Below, in pieces: positions 5,320-60,485 of a DNA stretch of 64,000 nucleotides. Source of the DNA: Candidatus Daviesbacteria bacterium RIFCSPHIGHO2_12_FULL_37_16. GTDB lineage: Bacteria; Patescibacteriota; Microgenomatia; Daviesbacterales; UBA10151. Within the stretch, counting starts at the first letter, position 1. Every line of letters begins with the position of its first letter. The stretch lies in NCBI GenBank assembly GCA_001776785.1, contig MFDF01000008.1, positions 18,443-82,442 of the forward strand, read 5' to 3'. The notes beneath the pieces are model-generated. The model was not told the DNA's origin, made no database searches, and was given only the letters and a program-made list of their open reading frames with translations. The translations under genes and the position numbers were made by a program.

Positions 5320-5775
5320 ATGAGCATATCAGTAGATGACATTAAAAAACTAAGAGAAGAGACAGGTGCAGGGATCGCAGACTGTAGAGAGGCTTTAGAA
5401 GAAGCAAAAGGAGATTTAGAAAAAGCAAAACAAGTTTTAAAGAAAAAGGGTTTGGATAAAGCAGGATCTAAATCTGACAGGGAAGTTAGGGCTGGGATTG
5501 TTGATGTTTACTCTCATGGGGGCAGGGTTGGGGTTATGGTTGAACTTTTGTGTGAAACAGACTTTGTTGCCCGCACTGATGATTTTAAAAATTTAGCCCA
5601 TGAGCTTTCACTGCAGATTGCCTCTATGAGACCTGACAGTGTATCAGATCTTTTAGAGCAGGAATATGTTAGGGACCCTTCCCTAAAAATAGATGATTTA
5701 ATAAAAGCTGCAGTTTTAAAACTTGGGGAAAATATCCAGGTTGGCAGGTTTGAAAGAATTGAGTTAGGGAAATAA
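5320..5775 (+). CDS. tsf: elongation factor Ts (short form)
   Basis: N-terminal UBA-like KKLREETGAGIADCREALEEAKGDLEKA and EF-Ts core; 151 aa as in CPR/short EF-Ts. Confidence 0.9.
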   Translation: MSISVDDIKKLREETGAGIADCREALEEAKGDLEKAKQVLKKKGLDKAGSKSDREVRAGIVDVYSHGGRVGVMVELLCETDFVARTDDFKNLAHELSLQIASMRPDSVSDLLEQEYVRDPSLKIDDLIKAAVLKLGENIQVGRFERIELGK

Positions 5776-8530: not shown

Positions 8531-10246
8531 ATGCTTTATTCAAAGTTATTTCCAAAAACAATTAAAGAAACACCTAAAGATGCTTCACTGACCTCCCATA
8601 AACTCCTTTACAGGGGTGGGTTTATCAGGGAATCAGCAGCAGGAAGATATTACTTGCTTCCACTTGGAATAAGGGTCCATCAAAAAATACAAAAAATCAT
8701 AAAAGAGGAGATGGATAAAACAGGAGCCCAGGAAATGGTAACTCCAGTTTTGCACCCTAAAGAACTCTGGAAAGAAACAAACAGAACTTCCTCAGTAGGT
8801 TTTGAGTTAATGAGCATAAAAGACAGAAATGAGATGGAGTTTGTTTTAGGTGGAACAGCAGAAGAAATGCTTGTAGATCTAGTTAGAAAATTCAAACTAA
8901 GTTATAGGGACCTGCCATTTAATCTTTATCAATTTTCCACAAAATTCAGGGATGAGTTAAGAGCTAGAGGAGGTCTTTTAAGGCTTAGAGAGTTCATGAT
9001 GAAAGATGCTTATTCTTTTGATGCAACAGAGGGTGATTTTAAAACTGAATATGAAAAAATGTCAAAGACTTATACAGAAATTTTTAATAGGATGGGTTTA
9101 AAAACAATTATTGTTGAATCTGACAATGGATACATTGGTGGGGAATACTGTCATGAGTTTGTAGTTGAATCAGAAGTTGGTGAAAGCAGATTTTTAATGA
9201 CAGAAGATGGTTCATATGCAGCACATGAAGATGTAGCTAAATTTAGCTTAGAAAGAAAAAATGTTTCTGAAAAAGAAAAACCTTTAGAAGAAGTAGAGGC
9301 AGTTAGAGGAACAACAATGGAGGATGGAGTTAAACTGCATAATCTGCCTCTTTGGCAGCAGATCAAAGATGTGTTATTTGTAGATGAAAAAGGCAGGTTT
9401 ATTTTAAGCATTATTAGGGGTGACTATGATGTTAATGAAACAAAGCTTTTACATCTAATTAAATCCTACCAATTAAGACATGCAACAGAAGAAGAGATAA
9501 GGGAAAAGATTCACTCTGAACCTGGATTTATTTCTCCTGTGGGAATTAAAGACATTATAGAAAAGGATGTTGAACTAATTATTGTTGCAGATGATTCACT
9601 AAGGACTGTTAAAAATGCTTATGGTGGTGCAAACAAAAAACACAGAGACCTTTTAAATATGAATATAGACAGAGACTATAAAGCAGACATAGAAGGGGAT
9701 ATTGCTTTAGCCAGGGAAGGGGACTTAGCAGCAGATGGGGGAGGAAAGTTAATAGCAAAAAAGGGAATTGAGGTTGGAAATATTTTCCAGCTTGGTTTTC
9801 ATTATTCTTCAAAGATGAAAGGTGCAAATTACATAGATAAAGATGGTAAAGAAAAACCTTATTATATGGGTTGTTATGGCATAGGCCTTGCCAGGACTTT
9901 GGCCACAGTAGTTGAAGTTTACAATGATGAAAAGGGCATTGTATGGCCAGAATCTGTAGCACCATATCAAGTTCACCTTGTTGGTTTAGACCTATCTGAC
10001 AAAGCTGTTTTGGAAAAAGCAGAACAAGTTTATAAAATTCTAACTTCTCATGGGATAGAAGTTTTATTTGATGACAGGATAGAGCCCTCTGCAGGTGAAA
10101 AGTTTGCAGATGCAGATTTGATAGGGATTCCTTATAGAGTAGTAATTTCTAAGAAAACCGGAGCAGAGATAGAAGTTAAAAAAAGGTCCCAAAAAGAGAC
10201 TGAATTTAAAAAATTAGAGGATCTGGTAAAATCTATCAAGGAATGA
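8531..10246 (+). CDS. proS: prolyl-tRNA synthetase
   Basis: Class II aaRS motifs (FRDELRARGGLLRLREFMMKDAYSFD), ProRS anticodon-binding C-terminus; 571 aa. Confidence 0.95.
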   Translation: MLYSKLFPKTIKETPKDASLTSHKLLYRGGFIRESAAGRYYLLPLGIRVHQKIQKIIKEEMDKTGAQEMVTPVLHPKELWKETNRTSSVGFELMSIKDRNEMEFVLGGTAEEMLVDLVRKFKLSYRDLPFNLYQFSTKFRDELRARGGLLRLREFMMKDAYSFDATEGDFKTEYEKMSKTYTEIFNRMGLKTIIVESDNGYIGGEYCHEFVVESEVGESRFLMTEDGSYAAHEDVAKFSLERKNVSEKEKPLEEVEAVRGTTMEDGVKLHNLPLWQQIKDVLFVDEKGRFILSIIRGDYDVNETKLLHLIKSYQLRHATEEEIREKIHSEPGFISPVGIKDIIEKDVELIIVADDSLRTVKNAYGGANKKHRDLLNMNIDRDYKADIEGDIALAREGDLAADGGGKLIAKKGIEVGNIFQLGFHYSSKMKGANYIDKDGKEKPYYMGCYGIGLARTLATVVEVYNDEKGIVWPESVAPYQVHLVGLDLSDKAVLEKAEQVYKILTSHGIEVLFDDRIEPSAGEKFADADLIGIPYRVVISKKTGAEIEVKKRSQKETEFKKLEDLVKSIKE

Positions 10247-52136: not shown

Positions 52137-52397
52137 CTATCCCTCTTTCTCAACAGCAATTGTGCACTCAGAAACTAAAGCAATTATTGTCCCAATTGCT
52201 GCCAGTGGGGGAAGCACAACTGCACCTATTACCCCAACTGTCAGGGGAAACTCAGCAATGACTTTTCCCTCTTTACTTTTTATGGTTATCTTTCTGATAT
52301 TACCCTCTTGGACTAACTCCCTTAACTTTTTTAAAATATCCTCACCAGAAACTTTAAACTCTTCTGTCCTTGTTTTCTTTTTAGCCATACTATTCAC
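52137..52397 (-). CDS. DUF4342-family protein
   Basis: EEFKVSGEDILKKLRELVQEGNIRKITIKSKEGKVIAEFPLTVGVIGAVVLPPLAAIGTIIALVSECTI. Confidence 0.6.
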   Translation of the reverse strand: MNSMAKKKTRTEEFKVSGEDILKKLRELVQEGNIRKITIKSKEGKVIAEFPLTVGVIGAVVLPPLAAIGTIIALVSECTIAVEKEG

Positions 52398-52809
52398 CTC
52401 CTACCTTCTCTCTAATTGTTGAATGGTCTGGATATTCACTTTCAGTTGGGTAATGGATGTCTTTAAACTTTTCAATCTCTTCAAAAATCCTCTCAAACCC
52501 TAAATTGATACATTCATCAATAGTCCTGCCCTTAAAATGGACATAAAGCCTGTTTTTATCAAGCCTGAAAGTAATTGAACCCTCATAAAAAGCCAATGAA
52601 GGCTTTTTATCTGAATAAGTTTTATGGGAGTGGGGATGGGTCCTTTGGGGATGATACTTATCAGTATTTCTTTTTAGTGTTAACCTGAAAACAATTAAAT
52701 CACTCTCAACATGAGGCAGGGCCTTAACAATCTTTTCTAAATTTGCCTGGATATGTTTGTGGTTATCTTCTGAAAGTTCACAATTTTTGCAAGTTATCTT
52801 AAGAATCAT
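52390..52809 (-). CDS. HPF/RaiA-like ribosome hibernation factor with an inserted His/Pro-rich loop
   Basis: ILKITCKNCELSEDNHKHIQANLEKIVK ... SDLIVFRLTLKRN pattern of the YfiA/HPF fold. Confidence 0.45.
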   Translation of the reverse strand: MILKITCKNCELSEDNHKHIQANLEKIVKALPHVESDLIVFRLTLKRNTDKYHPQRTHPHSHKTYSDKKPSLAFYEGSITFRLDKNRLYVHFKGRTIDECINLGFERIFEEIEKFKDIHYPTESEYPDHSTIREKVGGE

Positions 52810-53503
52810 ATTCTCTAAATCCCTCCTTAAAGTTATGGCTTAAATATTTTTTAAACCAATCTGATGCATGCTCTGCAGCTTTTTCCAAAGTACCTGTTTC
52901 TTCAAAAAGATGGGTTGCATTTGGGATAATCTCCAGCTTCTTGGTAGTAATTATAGCCTGGTAAGCCTGCCTGTTTAGGTCCAGCACCTCTGGGTCTTCT
53001 TCCCCAACAATGAGCAAAGTGGGGGATTTAACCTTAGCTAATTCATCCATTGCCAGATCAGGCCTGCCTCCTCTTGAAACTACTGCCCTAATGTCTGACC
53101 CAACCCTGGCTGCAGCATTCAGTGCAGCTGCAGCACCTGTTGATGCTCCAAAATACCCAAGCTTCAACCCCTTTAAATGGGGCTGCTTTCTAATCCAGCT
53201 GGTTGCTTTTATTAGCCTTTCAGTCAGGAGTTCAATCTCAAACCTCATAGCATAATCTAAATCCTCCTCTTCAGTTAAAAGGTCAAAAAGCAGAGTTGCC
53301 ACCCTTGAGCGCCTTAAAACTTCTGCCACAAAATTATTCCTGGGACTATGCCTGCCGCTGCCGCTCCCATGGGCAAACAAAACTATCCCTCTTGGGTTGT
53401 GGGGAATCCTTAAAACCCCTTCCACAGACACCCCATTAACAGGAATAGTGACTGTGCTCCTTACATCTTTATTATCTTTTGGCACATCTAAATTTTTAAC
53501 CAT
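52799..53503 (-). CDS. dienelactone-hydrolase-family alpha/beta hydrolase
   Basis: FAHGSGSGRHSPRN...GYFGASTGAAAAL nucleophile region. Confidence 0.65.
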   Translation of the reverse strand: MVKNLDVPKDNKDVRSTVTIPVNGVSVEGVLRIPHNPRGIVLFAHGSGSGRHSPRNNFVAEVLRRSRVATLLFDLLTEEEDLDYAMRFEIELLTERLIKATSWIRKQPHLKGLKLGYFGASTGAAAALNAAARVGSDIRAVVSRGGRPDLAMDELAKVKSPTLLIVGEEDPEVLDLNRQAYQAIITTKKLEIIPNATHLFEETGTLEKAAEHASDWFKKYLSHNFKEGFREYDS

Positions 53504-53511
53504 ATGTCTCC

Positions 53512-54477
53512 TTACAAAAGCGGCTCTTCAGGTTCTGCTATTTCCACCTTTTTTGCCTCTCTGTAAACCCTTTTTATCTCCTTCCTGATTTTTTTAAGAT
53601 GATGGGAATATTCTATAAGCAATGGTCCAACAGAGATAACCTCTATTTCCTTTAAATTTAAGGAATAGACTGTTGGTATAGAATCTGTGCAGTAAATTTT
53701 TTTAACATTTAAGTTAAAAAGCTGCTTCCAACTGCTTCCACTAAATTGCCCATGGGTAACAAATATATAGATATTCTTAGCTCCTGCAGATTTTAAAACC
53801 CTTGAGCACTCAACAAGTGTCCCCCCTGTATCTAAAATATCATCAATAACCACCACATTCTTGCTAACTTGGCCATACAAAATTGAACTTATACCCCCGG
53901 GGGTCCTTTCTTTCTTCATAAAAGCAATTTCAACTTCTCCTCCATACTCCTCAATTACTTTACGGGTCCTTTCCATGGCCCCCTCATCAGGTGCAACAAA
54001 GGTTGGGTTTTTAAGCTTAAGCTTCTTAATTTCTTTAGCAAAAAGTTTTGCAGGGGACAGGTCATATATGGGAATTGAGAAGAGGCTCTCTGCTTTGTGG
54101 CTATGTAAATCTATGGTTATTATTTCACTAATATATGAACTTCTCATTAAGGCGCCAACGCATGCAGCAGCCAGGCTCTCGCCCTTTTTTTCTTTATCCT
54201 GCCTGGCATATGCAAGATAGGGGAGTATCACGCTTACTTTTGATGCGCCCTCTTTTTTTAGTGTATGGGCAAGCAGCAGAAATGCTAGAAGCTGTTCATC
54301 AGGGGGCGCAATTGTACCCAGTATCAGACAATCCTTATCCTCTACACTGGTATCTACTTTCACAAAAAGCTCCAGGTTGGGAAACCTTCCGGCGCTAAAA
54401 TCCCCCAGCCTGCTTTCTGGTAAATCCTTTAGGTATTTAACTAAATATTTATACTGCTTGAATGGGAATATGACCAT
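53512..54477 (-). CDS. prs: ribose-phosphate pyrophosphokinase
   Basis: DLHS, PRPP-binding VVIDDILDTGGTL. Confidence 0.9.
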   Translation of the reverse strand: MVIFPFKQYKYLVKYLKDLPESRLGDFSAGRFPNLELFVKVDTSVEDKDCLILGTIAPPDEQLLAFLLLAHTLKKEGASKVSVILPYLAYARQDKEKKGESLAAACVGALMRSSYISEIITIDLHSHKAESLFSIPIYDLSPAKLFAKEIKKLKLKNPTFVAPDEGAMERTRKVIEEYGGEVEIAFMKKERTPGGISSILYGQVSKNVVVIDDILDTGGTLVECSRVLKSAGAKNIYIFVTHGQFSGSSWKQLFNLNVKKIYCTDSIPTVYSLNLKEIEVISVGPLLIEYSHHLKKIRKEIKRVYREAKKVEIAEPEEPLL

Positions 54478-55111
54478 ACCCTTTAACCTTCTTCATGATT
54501 TTAACAACATCACTATCTTCAACTGTGGAAAAATCCCGGTAATATGCACCAATTGCACCCAAAAAATCTTCTTCTAAACTTACTGCTTTGACTTCTACTC
54601 CTTCTTTTTCAAGTTCTTCAGCTATGTCTACAGGTGCAACTGGTACTGCTACAATTATCTTTTTAGGGAAATAATGGAGTTTAAGCTCTGAGACTGCAGC
54701 TTTAACAGTGAAGCCTGTTGCTATCCCATCATCAACTAAAATTGCTACTTTCCCCCTGCATGGTATTGGTTTCCTGCCTGATAAATAAACTTCCCGCCTT
54801 CTGCGCGCTTCTAACTGTTGTTTGTAGCCCTCCTCTTTTAAATACTCCTCATCAATACCCAATACTTCATCCTTATTCAAAATAGAATGACCGTTTTCAG
54901 CAACAGCCCCAATTGCATACTCTGGAGAATATGGATGCCTAATTTTCCTGGTGATAATTAAATCAAGCGGAGCATTTAAGGCTTTGGCAACTTCTGCCCC
55001 CACTACAACACCTCCTCTTGGAAGTGCATAAACTACAACCTCCCCACCCCCATATTTTTTTAAAAGTTTTGCAAGTTTCTTCCCTGCCTCAACCCTGTCT
55101 CTAAAAATCAT
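54449..55111 (-). CDS. type I phosphoribosyltransferase-domain protein (COG1926-like)
   Basis: ILVDDGIATGFT PRPP motif. Confidence 0.7.
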   Translation of the reverse strand: MIFRDRVEAGKKLAKLLKKYGGGEVVVYALPRGGVVVGAEVAKALNAPLDLIITRKIRHPYSPEYAIGAVAENGHSILNKDEVLGIDEEYLKEEGYKQQLEARRRREVYLSGRKPIPCRGKVAILVDDGIATGFTVKAAVSELKLHYFPKKIIVAVPVAPVDIAEELEKEGVEVKAVSLEEDFLGAIGAYYRDFSTVEDSDVVKIMKKVKGYGHIPIQAV

Positions 55112-55129
55112 TTTCTCATCCTCATACCT

Positions 55130-55546
55130 TTAAACTGTCTTCACCTCAATCTTTTTAGGCTTTGATGGAGCAGTTTTTTTAAAAACTATATGCATCATAC
55201 CATCTTTGTAAGTAGCTTCTGGTGTAGTTTTTGGGTTGACATCGGTTGGGACTGACACCCTGTATGAGAAAGAACTTGTTGCTTTTCTGTAATATTTCTT
55301 CTCTTTTTCTTCTTCTTTAGCCTCCCCGCTGACATGGAGGATACCATTATCAAAGGTTACCTCAATCTTTTTGGGGTCAATTCCGGGTAGTGCAGCATCA
55401 ATGTAAAAATTCTTATTATCCTCAGAGACAGATAGCCCGCTTGGAATTGTGTCCAATCTTGTTTCCTCCAGCAAATCTTCCATTACAGAGGGCATTCTCA
55501 AAGTTGGAAATGTCCAGAAATTTCTTGGGATTAAACCATTTGGCAT
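55130..55546 (-). CDS. Hsp20/alpha-crystallin small heat-shock protein
   Basis: ACD core FYIDAALPGIDPKKIEVTFDNGILHVSGE...SFSYRVSVP. Confidence 0.85.
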   Translation of the reverse strand: MPNGLIPRNFWTFPTLRMPSVMEDLLEETRLDTIPSGLSVSEDNKNFYIDAALPGIDPKKIEVTFDNGILHVSGEAKEEEKEKKYYRKATSSFSYRVSVPTDVNPKTTPEATYKDGMMHIVFKKTAPSKPKKIEVKTV

Positions 55547-55579
55547 ATTTTTTCACCTCCTTTTCTGCAGCTTAAATTT

Positions 55580-55897
55580 TTATGCTGCCATATAGCCTCT
55601 CTGATGTCTTTCTGACTCCTGTTCCCTGTGGGCAAAGTTGTTATATAAAGCGACTGTGCCATAGGTAACTATCCAGGTTAAGACAGTTAGAGAGATAAAA
55701 CCCCAAACAAATGAACCAAAAGTCATTGCACTTGTAGCCCTGACTGCTTCTAAACTAAGGGTATGTACCCAAGCTTGAACAATTCCCACTATGAAATCAG
55801 GAACTATTAAACTTAAGGATGCACAAACAACATAAAGGATTACCACCGCAGTGGTCACTGCATTAGCTGCTGCTATTGGTCTTATCATTTTTCTCAC
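55580..55897 (-). CDS. hypothetical membrane protein
   Basis: 3 TM helices. Confidence 0.35.
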   Translation of the reverse strand: MRKMIRPIAAANAVTTAVVILYVVCASLSLIVPDFIVGIVQAWVHTLSLEAVRATSAMTFGSFVWGFISLTVLTWIVTYGTVALYNNFAHREQESERHQRGYMAA

Positions 55898-55969
55898 CCC
55901 CTCAACTGTATCCTTTTGTATTATCTCTCCTGGCTGTAAGTTTTTTCAGTGATTTGCATCAGAAAATTG

Positions 55970-55985
55970 TGTGATTTGAGTCACA
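55970..55985. promoter_or_regulatory. perfect Crp-type site TGTGA-tttgag-TCACA upstream of the crp/fnr gene
   Basis: Exact TGTGA-N6-TCACA ~38 nt upstream of the 56023 start. Confidence 0.6.
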
Positions 55986-56022
55986 CTGGTAAGACAAAAA
56001 GGATTAGAGTAAAATACTTCTG

Positions 56023-56676
56023 ATGGATTTGGATATCAAGCAAAAACTTGAAAATTTTTTCAAGCAGTATAAAAATCAAAAATATAGAAAAGGGGAAATT
56101 TTAGTCAGGGCGGATGATAATCCCTCTGGAGTATTTTATTTAATAAATGGGGTTGTCAGAAGATATTCAATTTCCCCGGCTGGTGAAGAACTGACCCTAA
56201 ACATTTACAGGCCGGTTTCTTTTTTCCCAATGGATTGGGCAATAAACCAAACCTCAAGCACTCATTATTATGAAGCTATGACTACTGCAGAAGTTTATAG
56301 GGCTCCAAGGGATGAAGTGTTGAAATTTATATCTGATAAACCAGATATTTTGCTGGATTTATTATCAAGGATTTACCATGGGCTGGATGGTTTTATGATG
56401 AGGATGGAGTACTTAATGGCTGGTAATGCCCAGGCCAGGTTGATTACAGAAGTTTTGATTTATGCCAGGCGTTTTGGAAAACCAAATGGTAAGGCTATTC
56501 TAATTGATCTAAAACTGACAGAGAAAGATTTAGCCTCACAATCCGGCATAGCCCGGGAGACTGTCAGCCGTGAATTACAAAAACTTAAGGGTAAAAATTT
56601 GATAAGTTTCAAAAGCAATCAATTAATTGTTAAGGATATAAAAAGACTGGAACAAGAGTTATTCGGCAGCCAGTGA
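56023..56676 (+). CDS. Crp/Fnr-family transcriptional regulator
   Basis: cNMP-binding beta-roll and C-terminal HTH ARETVSRELQKL. Confidence 0.85.
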   Translation: MDLDIKQKLENFFKQYKNQKYRKGEILVRADDNPSGVFYLINGVVRRYSISPAGEELTLNIYRPVSFFPMDWAINQTSSTHYYEAMTTAEVYRAPRDEVLKFISDKPDILLDLLSRIYHGLDGFMMRMEYLMAGNAQARLITEVLIYARRFGKPNGKAILIDLKLTEKDLASQSGIARETVSRELQKLKGKNLISFKSNQLIVKDIKRLEQELFGSQ

Positions 56677-57063
56677 AGGCAGCATGGAGGAACGGACTCT
56701 GGTAATTACTTCATCAGTCGGTATAATTCTACTGCGAAGCAGGAGCTTTTGCTCATTCCTTTTCTTTATGTTGTTGGGAAGGCCGGTGGGAAGTAAATAA
56801 CCCTGCCAGCAGCCAATGCCAACAGACAATTCTAGATGCCAGGTATTTGTAATGCTTGGCTCTTCAATAACTTTATATAGTCTGTATTTACCTAAAGCCA
56901 GAATATAGTCAGCACTATGCTGTTTATGAGATGTGACTAAAATCTCTCCAATGCCTTCAGCGTTAACCCAGGCATATATTCCCCTTTGATCCAAAAAAAG
57001 GATCTTTGTTAAATGTCTAGTTTCTATTAACCTATAATCACCACTTCTTAAAAGCTTAATCAT
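56659..57063 (-). CDS. hypothetical protein
   Basis: ORF; two Crp-type sites lie 34-90 nt upstream of its start. Confidence 0.3.
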   Translation of the reverse strand: MIKLLRSGDYRLIETRHLTKILFLDQRGIYAWVNAEGIGEILVTSHKQHSADYILALGKYRLYKVIEEPSITNTWHLELSVGIGCWQGYLLPTGLPNNIKKRNEQKLLLRSRIIPTDEVITRVRSSMLPSLAAE

Positions 57064-57096
57064 ATAGAAATTATGGCAGGTTTATTCTTTATAGGC

Positions 57097-57112
57097 TGTG
57101 ACAGATATCACA
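57097..57112. promoter_or_regulatory. perfect Crp-type site TGTGA-cagata-TCACA
   Basis: Exact match to TGTGA-N6-TCACA. Confidence 0.6.
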
Positions 57113-57134
57113 TCAAAAATTGATTATGATCAAA

Positions 57135-57150
57135 TGTGATTTAGATCACA
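57135..57150. promoter_or_regulatory. perfect Crp-type site TGTGA-tttaga-TCACA
   Basis: Exact match; centre-to-centre 38 nt from the previous site. Confidence 0.6.
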
Positions 57151-57277
57151 AAAATTTATTGACCAAAAACACTGAAATACCTGAAAGAGTAGTATAAAGT
57201 TATTTTAAGGTTTGGGGCAGGCAAAGACAAAGTTGCGGCCCTGCCCCACAACTGAGTTTAAATATGGGAGGTGAAAA

Positions 57278-57370
57278 ATGAAAACCATAAAGATCTTAAA
57301 AGAATTAATGGAAGAGATGGAAGCGGTTATAGACCAATTATTACTACTTCTTAAAGCACCAGTAATTTAA
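57278..57370 (+). CDS. candidate 30-aa micro-protein MKTIKILKELMEEMEAVIDQLLLLLKAPVI
   Basis: Strong RBS gggaggtgaaaa-ATG; preceded by hairpin tggggcagg...cctgcccca (57223-57250); not in the ORF track because <60 aa. Confidence 0.25.
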   Translation: MKTIKILKELMEEMEAVIDQLLLLLKAPVI

Positions 57371-57379
57371 AGGAGGGAT

Positions 57380-57532
57380 ATGGAAATTATATTATTAGTT
57401 TTATTTATAATAACTGGAATCATATTGGCACTTATTCAGATTTATCTTCAAACTAAAAGGCATCCTCATCCAATGACCAAAAAAGAAAAAGATGAGTTTA
57501 TGTTCAATAATATTATATTATTAAGAAGGTGA
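57380..57532 (+). CDS. candidate 50-aa single-TM micro-protein
   Basis: RBS aggaggg-ATG; TM helix IILLVLFIITGIILALIQIYL; stop overlaps the GTG start of the next ORF (GTGA). Confidence 0.25.
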   Translation: MEIILLVLFIITGIILALIQIYLQTKRHPHPMTKKEKDEFMFNNIILLRR

Positions 57533-57867
57533 ACAAACAAAAATTTCTCTACTGGGCTCCAAGGGTTTTGTCAATTGGAATGATCCTATTCTTAGGGCTT
57601 TTTGCACTTGATGTATTCACACCTGGCCAGCCTATACTTTATATGATAGGAGGTTTTTTAATACACCTTATCCCAAATTATATCCTGGCAATTGCCCTTT
57701 TTATTGCCTGGAAATTTGAATTATTAGGAGGGATAATTTTTGTACTTCTTGCCATAATTATGTCATTATTTTTCAGAAACCCGCTGCCTGTAAATTTAAT
57801 GCTCTTTGGCCCAATCATGCTTATAGGAATTTTGTTCTTGGTGCACAATTATTATTACAGAAGATGA
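57529..57867 (+). CDS. hypothetical membrane protein (GTG start)
   Basis: 4 TM helices. Confidence 0.4.
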   Translation: MNKQKFLYWAPRVLSIGMILFLGLFALDVFTPGQPILYMIGGFLIHLIPNYILAIALFIAWKFELLGGIIFVLLAIIMSLFFRNPLPVNLMLFGPIMLIGILFLVHNYYYRR

Positions 57868-57868
57868 T

Positions 57869-58330
57869 TTATACCTTCAAAAAGTAGCCTACTAACAGCC
57901 CAATTGAAGTAGCAACTGCACCAATTATAAAAAGCTCAATAGCAGACCTTAGAGGTTTGTGTTCTACTACTTTTCCTTTAATATACCCAACTAAAAATAG
58001 TCCAATAAATGCAAAAATAATGGATAAAATCCTGGCATCTGACTGGTTAAATAAAATAACCGGGACAATTGGAATTAGTCCTGCTAAAAGATAGCTGAAA
58101 AACATGATTAGTGCACCCAAAATTAAAGAGTCAGTGTGTTTGCCTGTTTTGTCCATCTGATGGACAGCTTTCTCGGATGAGTATTGCCCTGCAGCCATAG
58201 AAGTAGCCTCAACTGCAACTGCCACAAAAGCAGCTAAAACAACAATCTCTTTTTGGGAAACCCCTGCAGAAAATCCCCACCACCACCCCTGTTGTAGACA
58301 CAAGCCCATCCTGCAGCCCAAATAGCGCAC
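57869..58330 (-). CDS. VIT1/CCC1-family (DUF125) membrane protein, N-terminus short or alternative start
   Basis: EATSMAAGQYSSEKAV matches the VIT-family SMAaGEYvSV motif; C-terminal TM pair. Confidence 0.55.
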   Translation of the reverse strand: MRYLGCRMGLCLQQGWWWGFSAGVSQKEIVVLAAFVAVAVEATSMAAGQYSSEKAVHQMDKTGKHTDSLILGALIMFFSYLLAGLIPIVPVILFNQSDARILSIIFAFIGLFLVGYIKGKVVEHKPLRSAIELFIIGAVATSIGLLVGYFLKV

Positions 58331-58464
58331 TCCTCAAATAATCCTCATGAATATGAAGCATCATTCAATTATAGATTATTTAGTTTCAGTGTAAAACACC
58401 TTCCCGCATCCGGTATGAGAAGCTACCAGCTTCTCCCCAAGTATCTCTGTGTTAACATTAATTA

Positions 58465-59280
58465 ATGCCTCAAAAAGGATTTACCAGTTTAGCAGTAATA
58501 TTAATTTTCCTGGTTTTTTTATCAGCTTCAGCATTTTTACTGTTAAGAGTACCTTCTAAGAATAAGGAAAGTATTCAGTCTTCACCTACCCAAAGTGAAA
58601 CCCGTAAAGCTGAGAATCCACAAATTGTCCAGAATTCAGGTGAACCACCACTCAAACTCAAAAGCATTGGAATAAACCTGGACTATTATGACCCTAAAAC
58701 AGGAAAAGCTGGGGATTTTGAATTTACCAAGCAAAAACTTGAATTTAACAGGCTGTTTATGGGTTATGGTTTTGTAATCCCCGGGAATATGTCTTCTACT
58801 AATCAGGATAAATCAAATCCACAGCCTACTTTTATTTTACCTCTGGGTACTCCTGTCAGGTCTTTGGTGGATGGAGTAGTTGCTAATATACCGGCTATCT
58901 GGAGTGGAGATGTTTCTATTCAGATCACTACAGATGGAAAATTGCAAAAATGGGTTTATGAAACAGAACATGTTATCAATCCAAAAGTTAAAGTTGGAGA
59001 CAAAGTAAAAGCCGGAGACATTATTGCTGAGGTCAGTAATTTCGACAAAGGAGCACCCAAGGGATATGGGGCTGTGGAAATTGGAATTTTACATGGGGGA
59101 GGGGAAGGGCCTCCAGAGCATGTTTGTCCGTTTTTATATCTGGACCCTTCTATCAAAGAAGAAACTCTTAAAAAAATTACTGCCCTTTTTAAATCCTGGG
59201 AAGATTATACTGGGGATCAAACACTTTATAATGAAACTATTACTCCAGGCTGCCTCACTCAAGACCCAATAGATGGATAA
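58465..59280 (+). CDS. hypothetical secreted protein (weak M23-peptidase-like resemblance)
   Basis: Signal anchor; GDKVKAGDIIAEV...HGGGEGPPEH. Confidence 0.3.
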   Translation: MPQKGFTSLAVILIFLVFLSASAFLLLRVPSKNKESIQSSPTQSETRKAENPQIVQNSGEPPLKLKSIGINLDYYDPKTGKAGDFEFTKQKLEFNRLFMGYGFVIPGNMSSTNQDKSNPQPTFILPLGTPVRSLVDGVVANIPAIWSGDVSIQITTDGKLQKWVYETEHVINPKVKVGDKVKAGDIIAEVSNFDKGAPKGYGAVEIGILHGGGEGPPEHVCPFLYLDPSIKEETLKKITALFKSWEDYTGDQTLYNETITPGCLTQDPIDG

Positions 59281-59299: not shown

Positions 59300-60485
59300 T
59301 ATATCTACTAAATCATTTAAGGGATGCAAAAGATGAGATACATCGGTAACACTCCTGAGGTAGAATTTTTACCCAGGGAGGTGATTACAGATGAAAAAGA
59401 TCAGGTATCTCCTGCAACCCAAATTAGATCCTAAAATACCAGATAAATGGACTTTTTTAAGGAAATTTGCCAAGAAACAAATTAGTGAAAAAGCTCAGCT
59501 AAAGCTGGAATGGATAATTTTCTACCATACATCCTCAGGTAAAAATGCCAAAGCTACAGCAATGCATTTTGGTATATCCAGAAAAACATTACATAAGTGG
59601 CTTAGTAGATTTGATGAAATTCACTTAAAGAGTTTAGAAGAGTACTCTAGAGCACCCAGACATGTTAGACACAGGCAAATTGATCTTTGGGAAAGAGGCA
59701 GGATTACTAAATTAAGGAAGAAACACCTAAAGTATGGCAAGATGAAACTGCAAAGAAGATACTTAAAAGTTTATGGTGAATATATCTCTTCCTGGAAGAT
59801 CCAAAAAGTAATTGAAGAGGGTAATCTCTACCCAGACAAACAAGCAGCCAAAAAAGCAAGGGAAAAGAAAAACAGGCATAAAGGACAGGCTAAAAAGAGG
59901 ATTACCCAGTTTCAAAAGAAAGAAATTACTAACTACCTTTGGCATGTAGATACAGTTTTGTTAACCATGAGTTCTGGAGGGTACAGATACCTTTTAACTG
60001 CAATTGATGAAGTTTCTAAACTAGCCTACTCCAGACTCTACACTACTCATTCATCAAAACAAGCTAAAGACTTTCTTTTAAGGCTTAATTACTTAACTGA
60101 TCAAAGAATCATCAATTTACATCATGATAATGGCTCAGAGTTTAAAAAAGACTTTGAAAAGGCTTGTGAAGAACTTAAACTGCCCCAGTGGTACTCCAGA
60201 CCACATACACCTAAAGATAATCCAGTCTTAGAAAGGTTTAACAGAACTATCCAGGAAGAATTTACTAACTTTTGGGATGTTAATCCTATGGATGTGGAAG
60301 ACTTTAACTTACAGCTTTTAGACTGGTTAATTGAATACAACTCCATTAGGCCTCATCAAACCCTTGATTACCAGACTCCTTTAGAATATATTGATACCCA
60401 TACCTTAGAAAAAGTGTCACCTATGTACTCATCCAGTACAAGGGATTGACAATTTATCCTAAAGTGATAGTCTAAACTTATAGTT
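59300..60485 (+). mobile_element. putative IS481-family insertion sequence; terminal inverted repeats only weakly recognisable
   Basis: Possible imperfect IRs ctaaatcatttaagggat (left, ~59311) vs atcctaaagtgatag (right, ~60460-60475); ~13/16 match. Confidence 0.35.
59391..60449 (+). CDS. IS481-like DDE transposase (rve integrase core)
   Basis: N-terminal HTH FGISRKTLHKWLSRFDE; HVDTV...D, HHDNGSEF, RPHTPKDNPVLERFNRTIQEEF (DDE motif). Confidence 0.8.
   Translation: MKKIRYLLQPKLDPKIPDKWTFLRKFAKKQISEKAQLKLEWIIFYHTSSGKNAKATAMHFGISRKTLHKWLSRFDEIHLKSLEEYSRAPRHVRHRQIDLWERGRITKLRKKHLKYGKMKLQRRYLKVYGEYISSWKIQKVIEEGNLYPDKQAAKKAREKKNRHKGQAKKRITQFQKKEITNYLWHVDTVLLTMSSGGYRYLLTAIDEVSKLAYSRLYTTHSSKQAKDFLLRLNYLTDQRIINLHHDNGSEFKKDFEKACEELKLPQWYSRPHTPKDNPVLERFNRTIQEEFTNFWDVNPMDVEDFNLQLLDWLIEYNSIRPHQTLDYQTPLEYIDTHTLEKVSPMYSSSTRD

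Follow-up and report, generated by a model that had tools for sequence, protein, structure and literature searches.

Conserved CRP-type palindromes beside a CRP/FNR-family regulator gene of Candidatus Daviesbacteria and their probable role as its operators

In a stretch of 64,000 nucleotides (nt) from Candidatus Daviesbacteria bacterium RIFCSPHIGHO2_12_FULL_37_16 (GenBank assembly GCA_001776785.1, contig MFDF01000008.1, positions 18,443 to 82,442; this whole 64-kb stretch is called the window below), a gene for a regulator of the CRP/FNR family, here called crp, is found among three perfect palindromes of the CRP type, TGTGA-N6-TCACA. The best explanation of the locus as a whole is that these palindromes are operators of the regulator encoded between them, and we consider this reading probable on the basis of motif enrichment, positional conservation, protein features, and synteny. 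The region between positions 55970 and 57532 had been described in an earlier sequence-only reading as a small Crp regulon that includes candidate micro-proteins. Our analysis places the centre of the finding in the pair formed by the regulator and a convergent gene for a protein of 134 amino acids (aa), together with a divergent stress operon, rather than in the micro-open reading frames (micro-ORFs). The features on which the argument depends are as follows.

55970-55985, no strand: box A, perfect CRP-type palindrome upstream of crp, centre at about -44.5
56023-56676, plus strand: crp, regulator of 217 aa with cNMP_binding and HTH_Crp_2 domains, helix R178-E-T-V-S-R183, no Cys
56659-57063, minus strand: gene for the 134-aa all-beta protein of an uncharacterised family, convergent with crp, 18-nt 3' overlap
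57070-57075, minus strand: -10-like hexamer CATAAT, 21 nt past box B, 6 nt before the ATG of the 134-aa gene
57097-57112, no strand: box B, perfect CRP-type palindrome, centre 41.5 nt before the ATG of the 134-aa gene
57135-57150, no strand: box C, perfect CRP-type palindrome, facing a plus-strand unit

The three palindromes were confirmed at the positions given previously, and the window contains no fourth exact copy. In dinucleotide-preserving shuffles of the window, the mean number of exact sites was 0.06, and none of 100 shuffles reached three, in agreement with the earlier claim that the palindromes are far above chance. When up to two mismatches were allowed, 16 sites were seen and 27.5 were expected in the window, where the GC content is 0.32–0.40. 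There is no general excess at this level, and the signal is therefore a local cluster of perfect sites.

Related loci were obtained as contigs encoding regulator homologues with 56–79% identity, and the labels L007–L021 denote the relatives' loci and strain variants that were compared with the window locus. A scan of genome contigs with the Crp protein gave only two loci, both with other neighbourhoods, and a metagenome contig search from a three-sequence alignment, with poor N-terminal patterns, gave two loci. At least 23 public contigs carry the exact regulator sequence, among them those of GCA_000991895.1 and GCA_000991695.1, and UniRef places the regulator in Candidatus Daviesiibacteriota; identity to the window across the region is 100% for seven further contigs and 99.4–99.6% for two strain variants (L019 and L020). 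The relatives with 56–79% identical regulators carry boxes at matching positions, and L021, in which Crp is 78% identical, has three exact boxes in the same layout as the window. In total, 15 exact boxes were found in 165 kb of non-redundant DNA from 13 loci, all 15 of them between called genes, and the extended box consensus is TGTGAY-N4-RTCACA. More distant clades have hybrid TGTGA-N6-TCAAT and TTGAT-N4-ATCAA sites. Judging from these comparisons, the palindromes are non-random operator-type sites that are evolutionarily conserved, and binding to them is predicted. Further exact boxes occur in L013 (8247–8262 and 9118–9133) and L014 (6724–6739); these stand before an SDR gene, between the SDR and VIT1 genes, and before a PAS-histidine kinase gene in the relatives.

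The arrangement of box B and the 134-aa gene was compared between the window and seven relatives. The distance from the box centre to the ATG of the 134-aa-family gene and the state of the box in each genome are given below.

Window: exact box, 41.5 nt
L011: exact box, 41.5 nt
L021: exact box, 41.5 nt
L012: exact box, 42.5 nt
L013: exact box, 42.5 nt
L010: box with 1 mismatch, 41.5 nt
L014: box with 1 mismatch, 41.5 nt
L018: hybrid box TGTGA-N6-TCAAT, 41.5 nt

In all eight genomes, exactly 21 nt separate the box from a -10-like hexamer, the ATG comes 6–7 nt after the hexamer, and a Shine-Dalgarno (SD) sequence precedes the gene in none of the eight. The hexamers are CATAAT, CAAACT, AATATT, TAAAAT, TAGATT, CATATT, TAAAGT, and TAGACT. 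Strict TAnnnT hexamers were located 21–22 nt from eight boxes, compared with a background of 4.5% per direction. L016 also keeps the box, the 21 nt, and a hexamer (TATAGT), but has a leader of 24 nt. In L017, the box, 21 nt, TATAGT, 7 nt, and a start codon are found before a VKOR gene, and the 134-aa homologue of this locus lies within an hsp20 operon, downstream of boxes. As described in PMC10187061, only class II promoters have a distance of 22 bp from the site to the second -10 position, and the class II arrangement (site near -41.5, about 21–22 bp to the -10) was found by geometry in the eight genomes and in L017. The layout of box B thus appears to be class II activator geometry, and box B, by virtue of this position, most likely activates an mRNA for the 134-aa protein that would be leaderless. 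The 134-aa gene would then be the most conserved target of the regulon, kept across the family.

A gene of this family, encoding 117–134 aa, is adjacent to crp, convergent with it, and overlaps its 3' end in 10 distinct loci (L010–L016, L018, L021, and the window). The coding overlap is 4–44 nt in every locus (window, 56659–56676; L011, 3073–3076; L012, 5637–5651; L013, 5608–5651; L014, 5648–5651). Because the 3' ends overlap, each transcript must run antisense into the other gene; the 134-aa transcript would run antisense into crp, and this overlap could act as a feedback device. The family comprises 637 proteins, none of which has a Pfam match. An AlphaFold 2 model of the 134-aa protein, built with 60 homologues (pLDDT 80, pTM 0.75), has eight strands and a C-terminal helix, and the invariant polar residues of the family are E14, K20, D52, H76, E78, Q87, Y89, and E118. 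The fold may bear a weak likeness to LigD phosphoesterase and to the triphosphate-tunnel (CYTH, Cet1)/class IV adenylyl-cyclase enzymes, Glu, His, Asp, Arg, and Lys are frequent among the invariant residues, and an enzymatic or ligand-binding function is possible. It is a very long shot, at best, that the regulator and the 134-aa protein form a two-gene signalling module of the Candidate Phyla Radiation (CPR), in which the 134-aa protein would make or destroy the ligand of a cAMP-blind Crp and the antisense feedback would produce a hibernation switch for Hsp20, HPF, and universal stress proteins (Usp).

The regulator belongs to the CRP/FNR superfamily, with a β-roll of the cyclic-nucleotide-monophosphate (cNMP)-binding type at the N-terminus (PF00027, 52.1 bits; cutoff 27.5) and HTH_Crp_2 at the C-terminus (PF13545, 51.6 bits; cutoff 27). 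All 64 of its homologues in the Protein Data Bank (PDB) are CRP/FNR members: the closest structures are those of NtcA (8h3v, 3la2, and 2xgx; E-values of 1e-17 to 6e-16), followed by mycobacterial CRP, DNR, SdrP (2zcw), FNR, PrfA, and CAP. The scores against the NCBIfam equivalogs were all far under the cutoffs (NtcA, 71.6 vs 245 bits; CRP, 42 vs 266 bits; FNR, 41.3 vs 228 bits). Helix R178-E-T-V-S-R183 aligns opposite R180-E-T-V-G-R185 of E. coli CRP, and the recognition helix RET[VI]SRE is invariant in 10 of 10 orthologues. In CAP, R180, E181, and R185 read G2 and G4 of TGTGA (PMC10187061). Both the R-E-x-x-x-R helix and the 5-6-5 palindromic operator were found here, with perfect boxes adjoining the gene in the window and in relatives, so that the regulator is predicted to bind them and would read the TGTGA half-sites through its CRP-like helix R-E-T-V-S-R. 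A profile search detected 1,379 homologues of the regulator at E ≤ 1e-20, which belong to Daviesbacteria/Patescibacteria wherever a source names them.

The sensory side of the protein differs from that of CRP, NtcA, and FNR. In place of residues E72, R82, S83, T127, and S128 of E. coli CRP, the regulator has P, S, T, F, and M, and no conserved Arg was found in the phosphate-binding loop across 10 orthologues. According to a review, the cNMP-binding CRPs have E(X)nR[ST] without exception (PMC10187061). The cAMP signature and the C-helix T/S pair are both absent, which separates the regulator from CRP in the strict sense; it is separated from NtcA by its score, by a Glu in place of Val in the helix, and by its TGTGA-N6-TCACA sites, and from FNR by its score and the absence of the N-terminal Cys cluster. 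By these marks, the regulator is not CRP proper, NtcA, or FNR. Sensing of cAMP was rejected on account of the replaced binding residues, FNR-type Fe-S sensing because the 217-aa protein contains 0 Cys, and 2-oxoglutarate (2-OG) sensing because the Arg of the NtcA segment “SDRFY,” presumably the 2-OG-binding residue, aligns with a Thr. With the cAMP signature and Cys absent, the regulator would therefore combine CRP-like DNA reading with some other effector or none; since canonical cAMP binding appears impossible, it would answer another ligand or be active without one. The label “Crp” that had been given to the gene holds for the recognition helix but not in the sense of cAMP binding.

The region upstream of crp contains a second box and a divergent operon, as listed below.

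56010-56015, plus strand: -10-like hexamer TAAAAT of crp, 24 nt past box A, 7 nt before the ATG
55948-55963, no strand: box A' (AGTGATTTGCATCAGA), degenerate, with 2 mismatches, 22 nt centre-to-centre from box A
55920-55925, minus strand: -10-like hexamer GATAAT (promoter scan CTGAAA-18-GATAAT), 22 nt from box A'
52137-55897, minus strand: stress operon, divergent from crp, tightly packed, with gaps of -29 to 33 nt
52390-52809, minus strand: S30AE/HPF-like gene, 139 aa, 18.9 bits (under the cutoff of 23.7), adjoining the DUF4342 gene
L011 2321-2336, L012 4921-4936 (FNR-type), L021 247-262 (FNR-type): second boxes equivalent to A', 22 nt upstream of the crp-proximal box
L012 6118-6504, plus strand: S30AE hibernation-factor gene, 25.1 bits (cutoff 23.7), directly served by a second box

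The arrangement of crp-proximal box, 24 nt, and TAAAAT/TATAAT is found in the window, L011, and L012, and the crp mRNA looks leaderless or near-leaderless from the position of the hexamer. The box upstream of crp recurs in L011, L012, and L021, and with 1 mismatch in L015. This recurrence is consistent with the autoregulation that had been suggested, while its sign is not uniform, the box in L021 being at a repressor-like position. Box A' is a fourth box that was overlooked in the sequence-only reading. The second box is of the AGTGA type in the window and L011, and an exact TTGAT-N4-ATCAA in L012 and L021. In the window, the spacing to GATAAT places box A' at about -42.5 for the minus-strand operon, and the layout in L011 is second box, 21 nt, TATAAG; an A'-type box at 21–22 nt from a minus-strand hexamer is therefore positioned to serve the divergent operon. 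Boxes A and A', 22 bp apart, would lie in a bidirectional promoter in which crp has box A at about -44.5 (autoregulation) and the stress operon has box A' at about -42.5.

The genes of the stress operon are, in order, a DUF5676 protein with two transmembrane (TM) segments, Hsp20, a 220-aa phosphoribosyltransferase (PRTase), PRPP synthetase (prs), a DLH-type hydrolase, the 139-aa S30AE/HPF-like protein, and DUF4342. Across the loci, Hsp20, Usp, HPF, PRTase, and PNPOx recur beside boxes or crp, and from this gene content we infer a stress/dormancy theme of the regulon.

To the right of the 134-aa gene, the intergenic region and the plus-strand unit contain the following features.

57120-57133, no strand: FNR-type palindrome TTGATTATGATCAA, exact TTGAT-N4-ATCAA, 22 nt from box B and 16 nt from box C (centres)
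57208-57253, plus strand: GC-rich leader hairpin (GGTTTGGGGCAGG...CCTGCCCCACAACT), -25.5 kcal/mol, z -2.2
57278-57370, plus strand: 30-aa ORF MKTIKILKELMEEMEAVIDQLLLLLKAPVI, preceded by GGGAGGTGA, with SD GGAGG 6 nt before the ATG
57380-57532, plus strand: 50-aa ORF with an N-terminal TM helix and a charged tail, SD AGGAGG, stop overlapping the DUF7670 start
57529-57867, plus strand: DUF7670 membrane protein, 112 aa, GTG start (Pfam PF24709, E 1.7e-30)

The FNR-type site, which had been overlooked, is present as a single copy of TTGAT-N4-ATCAA in the window, with 0.24 expected. In L021, both flanking CRP-type boxes are present, and a 14-nt gap is found at the position of the FNR-type site. A 22-nt tandem of a perfect CRP-type box and a variable GTGA/TTGA box was also observed in L011, L012, L018, and L021. 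Past box C, TGAAAT is located at 22 nt and TATAAA at 42 nt, the latter placing the box at -62.5 (class I); TTGAnn, AAACACTGAAA, and AGGTTTGGGG are common to the window and L021. The hairpin was likewise missed previously. Its outer stem is kept by changes on both arms (GGGGCAGG/CCTGCCCC in the window vs GGGGGTGGGTA/TACCTACCCC in L021), and the hairpin of L021 (1448–1556) has the conserved flanks AGGTTTGGGG ... CCCC-CAACTGA and a much larger insert. The conservation of the hairpin concerns two sequences only, and the folding z of the L021 leader (-0.85) is not significant. A search of Rfam with positions 55000–59000 and with L021 gave no credible family. As an RNA element preceding the micro-ORFs, the hairpin could have a regulatory function. 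Box C, perhaps in concert with the FNR-type palindrome (57120–57133), would most likely control the hairpin, the 30-aa and 50-aa ORFs, and DUF7670, which is the least secure step of the proposed scheme, and this unit would be a species-specific addition to the regulon.

Several observations weigh against activation by the adjacent regulator. The promoter elements throughout are consensus matches, and the genome motif scan covers 64 kb of the genome. L007 and L008, which are also relatives of the crp locus, have neither exact boxes nor a 134-aa neighbour. No TAnnnT was found at 21–22 nt from box C on either strand, and both the target of box C and its class (II via TGAAAT or I via TATAAA) are uncertain. 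An alternative sigma-70-like promoter in the window (TTGATG, 17 nt, TATAAA) would lie under box B, and a CCTATRAA block that is compatible with repression is conserved right after the box in the window, L011, and L012. In addition, only 6 nt separate the crp box of L021 from TAAAAT, which is followed after 7 nt by the ATG, and the box centre at about -27.5 corresponds to a repressor position. These last three observations would suit a regulator that recognizes the sites as its own but works mainly as a repressor, with boxes over core promoters and a locus that is silent until a signal frees the protein. We regard this as unlikely, given that eight genomes strictly keep the box, 21 nt, hexamer, 6–7 nt, and ATG, which is class II spacing (PMC10187061), and that the upstream -35/-10 pair is unconserved in both spacing (17–19 nt) and sequence.

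The identity of the binding protein also has to be considered. The boxes might be bound by another CRP/FNR paralogue, or by two paralogues, one reading GTGA and the other TTGA, with the adjacent regulator as just one target. Such an arrangement would explain the exact TTGAT-N4-ATCAA sites 22 nt from CRP-type boxes in the window, L012, L018, and L021, and 64 kb of the genome are in view; a second Crp/Fnr paralogue could share these regions, given the hybrid and FNR-type sites of the distant clades. We nevertheless judge it quite improbable: the boxes accompany this crp clade in all of the loci examined, RET[VI]SRE is invariant, no Crp/Fnr paralogue was found within the 64-kb window, and the helix pairs the Arg180 of CRP with an FNR-like Ser, a combination that could tolerate both half-sites. 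An origin of the palindromes by chance, or as leftovers of a repeat or mobile element, is effectively refuted, even though an rve-family transposase gene (59391–60449) lies 2 kb off. The expectation is only 0.06 sites per window, and the boxes are kept without their flanks at orthologous positions where Crp is 56–79% identical; a repeat-element origin was ruled out on the basis of spacers and flanks that differ among the copies. The reading in which the palindromes are operators of the adjacent regulator, acting mainly as an activator, is therefore the one we prefer.

With respect to the micro-ORFs, the layout and strong ribosome-binding sites noted in the sequence-only reading were reproduced, with SD sequences at 3–6 nt, and the stop codon of the 50-aa ORF (TGA) does overlap the GTG of the 112-aa ORF at 57529. 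The DUF7670 protein would thereby be translationally coupled to the 50-aa ORF. In contrast to the earlier statement that the micro-ORFs are unannotated, gene callers predict both in several assemblies, and the 50-aa peptide is present in GenBank/UniRef (EKD91079.1, KKQ10728.1, and KKQ15839.1); some assemblies lack a gene call for the 30-aa ORF. The codon-usage scores were 0.50 for the 30-aa ORF and 0.29 for the 50-aa ORF, the annotated frame was the best of six, and both scores exceeded those of all 52 spurious ORFs (ATG-initiated, 28–60 aa, out of frame inside long genes).

Conservation at the amino-acid level, which had been set beforehand as the test for these ORFs, was not found. Among 5.8 billion proteins, the only match to the 50-aa peptide was itself, and tblastn with both peptides gave nothing in any of eight related loci (L007, L008, and L010–L015) or in the rest of the window. 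When DUF7670 and DUF5676 were searched with tblastn against the same eight loci and the rest of the window, only the DUF5676 gene itself was detected; DUF7670 is nevertheless widespread, with 1365 representative homologues. In L011, the closest relative (79%), unrelated genes occupy the position of the micro-ORFs. L021 has ORFs of 25, 52 (with a TM segment), and 54 aa, after which comes an overlapping gene for a Ferric_reduct membrane protein; this arrangement is analogous to that of the window, but the sequences are not similar, and BLASTP of the 50-aa peptide against the 52-aa ORF gave no alignment. A comparison of synonymous and non-synonymous changes was uninformative because the strain variants L019 and L020 are identical to the window (0 single-nucleotide polymorphisms, SNPs) within 57064–57867. 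A frameshift joining the 50-aa ORF to DUF7670 was considered and rejected, as the Pfam match spans the 112-aa ORF from residue 2. The 30-aa and 50-aa ORFs share a frame and are separated by TAA and 9 nt (AGG AGG GAT), and stop read-through would give an 84-aa fusion.

The failure of amino-acid conservation, together with the hairpin that is kept in L021 where the ORFs are not and the assemblies in which gene callers skip the 30-aa ORF, would fit an alternative in which neither micro-ORF is translated, DUF7670 has a long structured leader or a small RNA at 57150–57528, and the strings resembling SD sequences occur there incidentally. This seems to us rather unlikely, although it deserves more weight than the alternatives discussed above. 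The SD sequences are strong and well spaced, whereas SD-like 4-mers precede 13 of 71 long ORFs in a crude count that takes the first ATG as the start; the annotated frame and the codon scores point to translation, as do the close packing of the unit, the coupling of the 50-aa stop to the DUF7670 start and the analogous TM micro-ORF before a membrane protein in L021. The micro-ORFs are probably lineage-specific small genes, for which these signals suggest translation, and it is plausible that both products are small membrane-associated orphan proteins. The proposal of a small Crp regulon with micro-proteins is thus upheld in part: the operator-type sites are conserved, but the conserved core consists of the 134-aa gene and the hsp20 operon, and the link between box C and the micro-ORFs is conjectural.

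Outside the regulon, the VIT1 gene (58200–58364, minus strand) is split by a frameshift near 58270, and its N-terminal VIT1-like part MMLHIHEDYLRSALFGLQDGLVSTTGVVVGI is in a different frame. L019 and L020 have one base fewer in VIT1 and an intact reading, with a cluster of SNPs at 58200–58341 in an otherwise almost invariant locus. In the window, VIT1 adjoins the DUF7670 unit without a box of its own. The rve-family integrase/transposase mentioned above (352 aa; an insertion sequence element) lies at 59391–60449, on the right-hand side of the regulon. Every relative has its own set of genes to the right of the 134-aa gene, and this part of the locus therefore seems to be variable. In L007, one of the loci without the 134-aa gene, one-mismatch boxes (5644–5659 and 9926–9941) flank a gpmA-eno-phosphoenolpyruvate (PEP) synthase cluster immediately downstream of crp; the record is labelled “uncultured Gammaproteobacteria” and looks like a mis-binned CPR contig. 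L016 likewise has a gene for a PEP-utilising enzyme, in divergent orientation to its 117-aa gene. In certain lineages, lower glycolysis may belong to the regulon as well.

According to a 2025 survey of some 6,000 genomes, the CPR clade notably lacks two-domain CRP/FNR proteins (PMC12531629), and the family of full-length regulators in Daviesbacteria/Patescibacteria described here does not fit this report. Scarcely any regulons of transcription factors have been characterized in CPR/Patescibacteria, and among the papers that could be searched we found no description of a Crp regulon in Patescibacteria. The present system supplies an operator, a promoter architecture, and a conserved target for a little-studied lineage, and offers an entry point to the regulation of stress/dormancy genes (hsp20, hibernation factor, Usp) in ultra-small uncultured bacteria. 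It also flags an unannotated family of 637 members as the constant partner of the regulator, while the micro-ORFs are of local interest only.

We compared the system with known regulators. The regulator shares with E. coli CRP/CAP the two-domain architecture, the RETV(S/G)R helix, the 16-bp TGTGA-N6-TCACA operator, the class II spacing of 21–22 bp between site and -10 (PMC10187061), and the presence of sites upstream of its own gene. It differs from this protein in sequence (23% identity; 42 vs 266 bits), in its replaced cAMP residues, and in targets that appear leaderless. NtcA, the cyanobacterial 2-OG sensor, is the best match among both the solved structures and the NCBIfam models, and the GenBank name of the window regulator is “nitrogen-responsive regulatory protein.” NtcA, too, acts from class II-type positions. 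However, the NtcA helix R-V-T-V-T-R reads GTA-N8-TAC, whereas the Daviesbacteria regulator has Glu after Arg and TGTGA-N6-TCACA sites. The likeness to E. coli FNR lies in the exact TTGAT-N4-ATCAA site at 57120–57133, in such sites 22 nt from CRP-type boxes in relatives, and in the helix Ser, which we take to be at the position of FNR Ser212; unlike FNR, the regulator has no Cys, scores 41 vs 228 bits, and has an equivalent of Arg180.

A further analogy, in gene content, takes the composition of the mycobacterial DosR regulon as its basis. As in such dormancy-type regulons (DosR; Cmr/CRP overlap, PMC4705688), a small heat-shock protein, universal stress proteins, a hibernation-factor-like protein, and a PRTase-domain protein are found beside the regulator. 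DosR itself is a LuxR-type regulator with other motifs, and the analogy in function is conjectural. SdrP is a stationary-phase stress regulator of Thermus thermophilus. SdrP (PDB 2ZCW) and TAP are, like the regulator studied here, members of the CRP/FNR family, and they act at class II promoters independently of cAMP; homology between 2zcw and the regulator is detectable (E 5.8e-8). They are distant in sequence, and the Daviesbacteria protein may act with or without a ligand. In its family membership, its putative class II sites, and its predicted independence of cAMP, the regulator resembles these apo-active “CRP-like” stress regulators.

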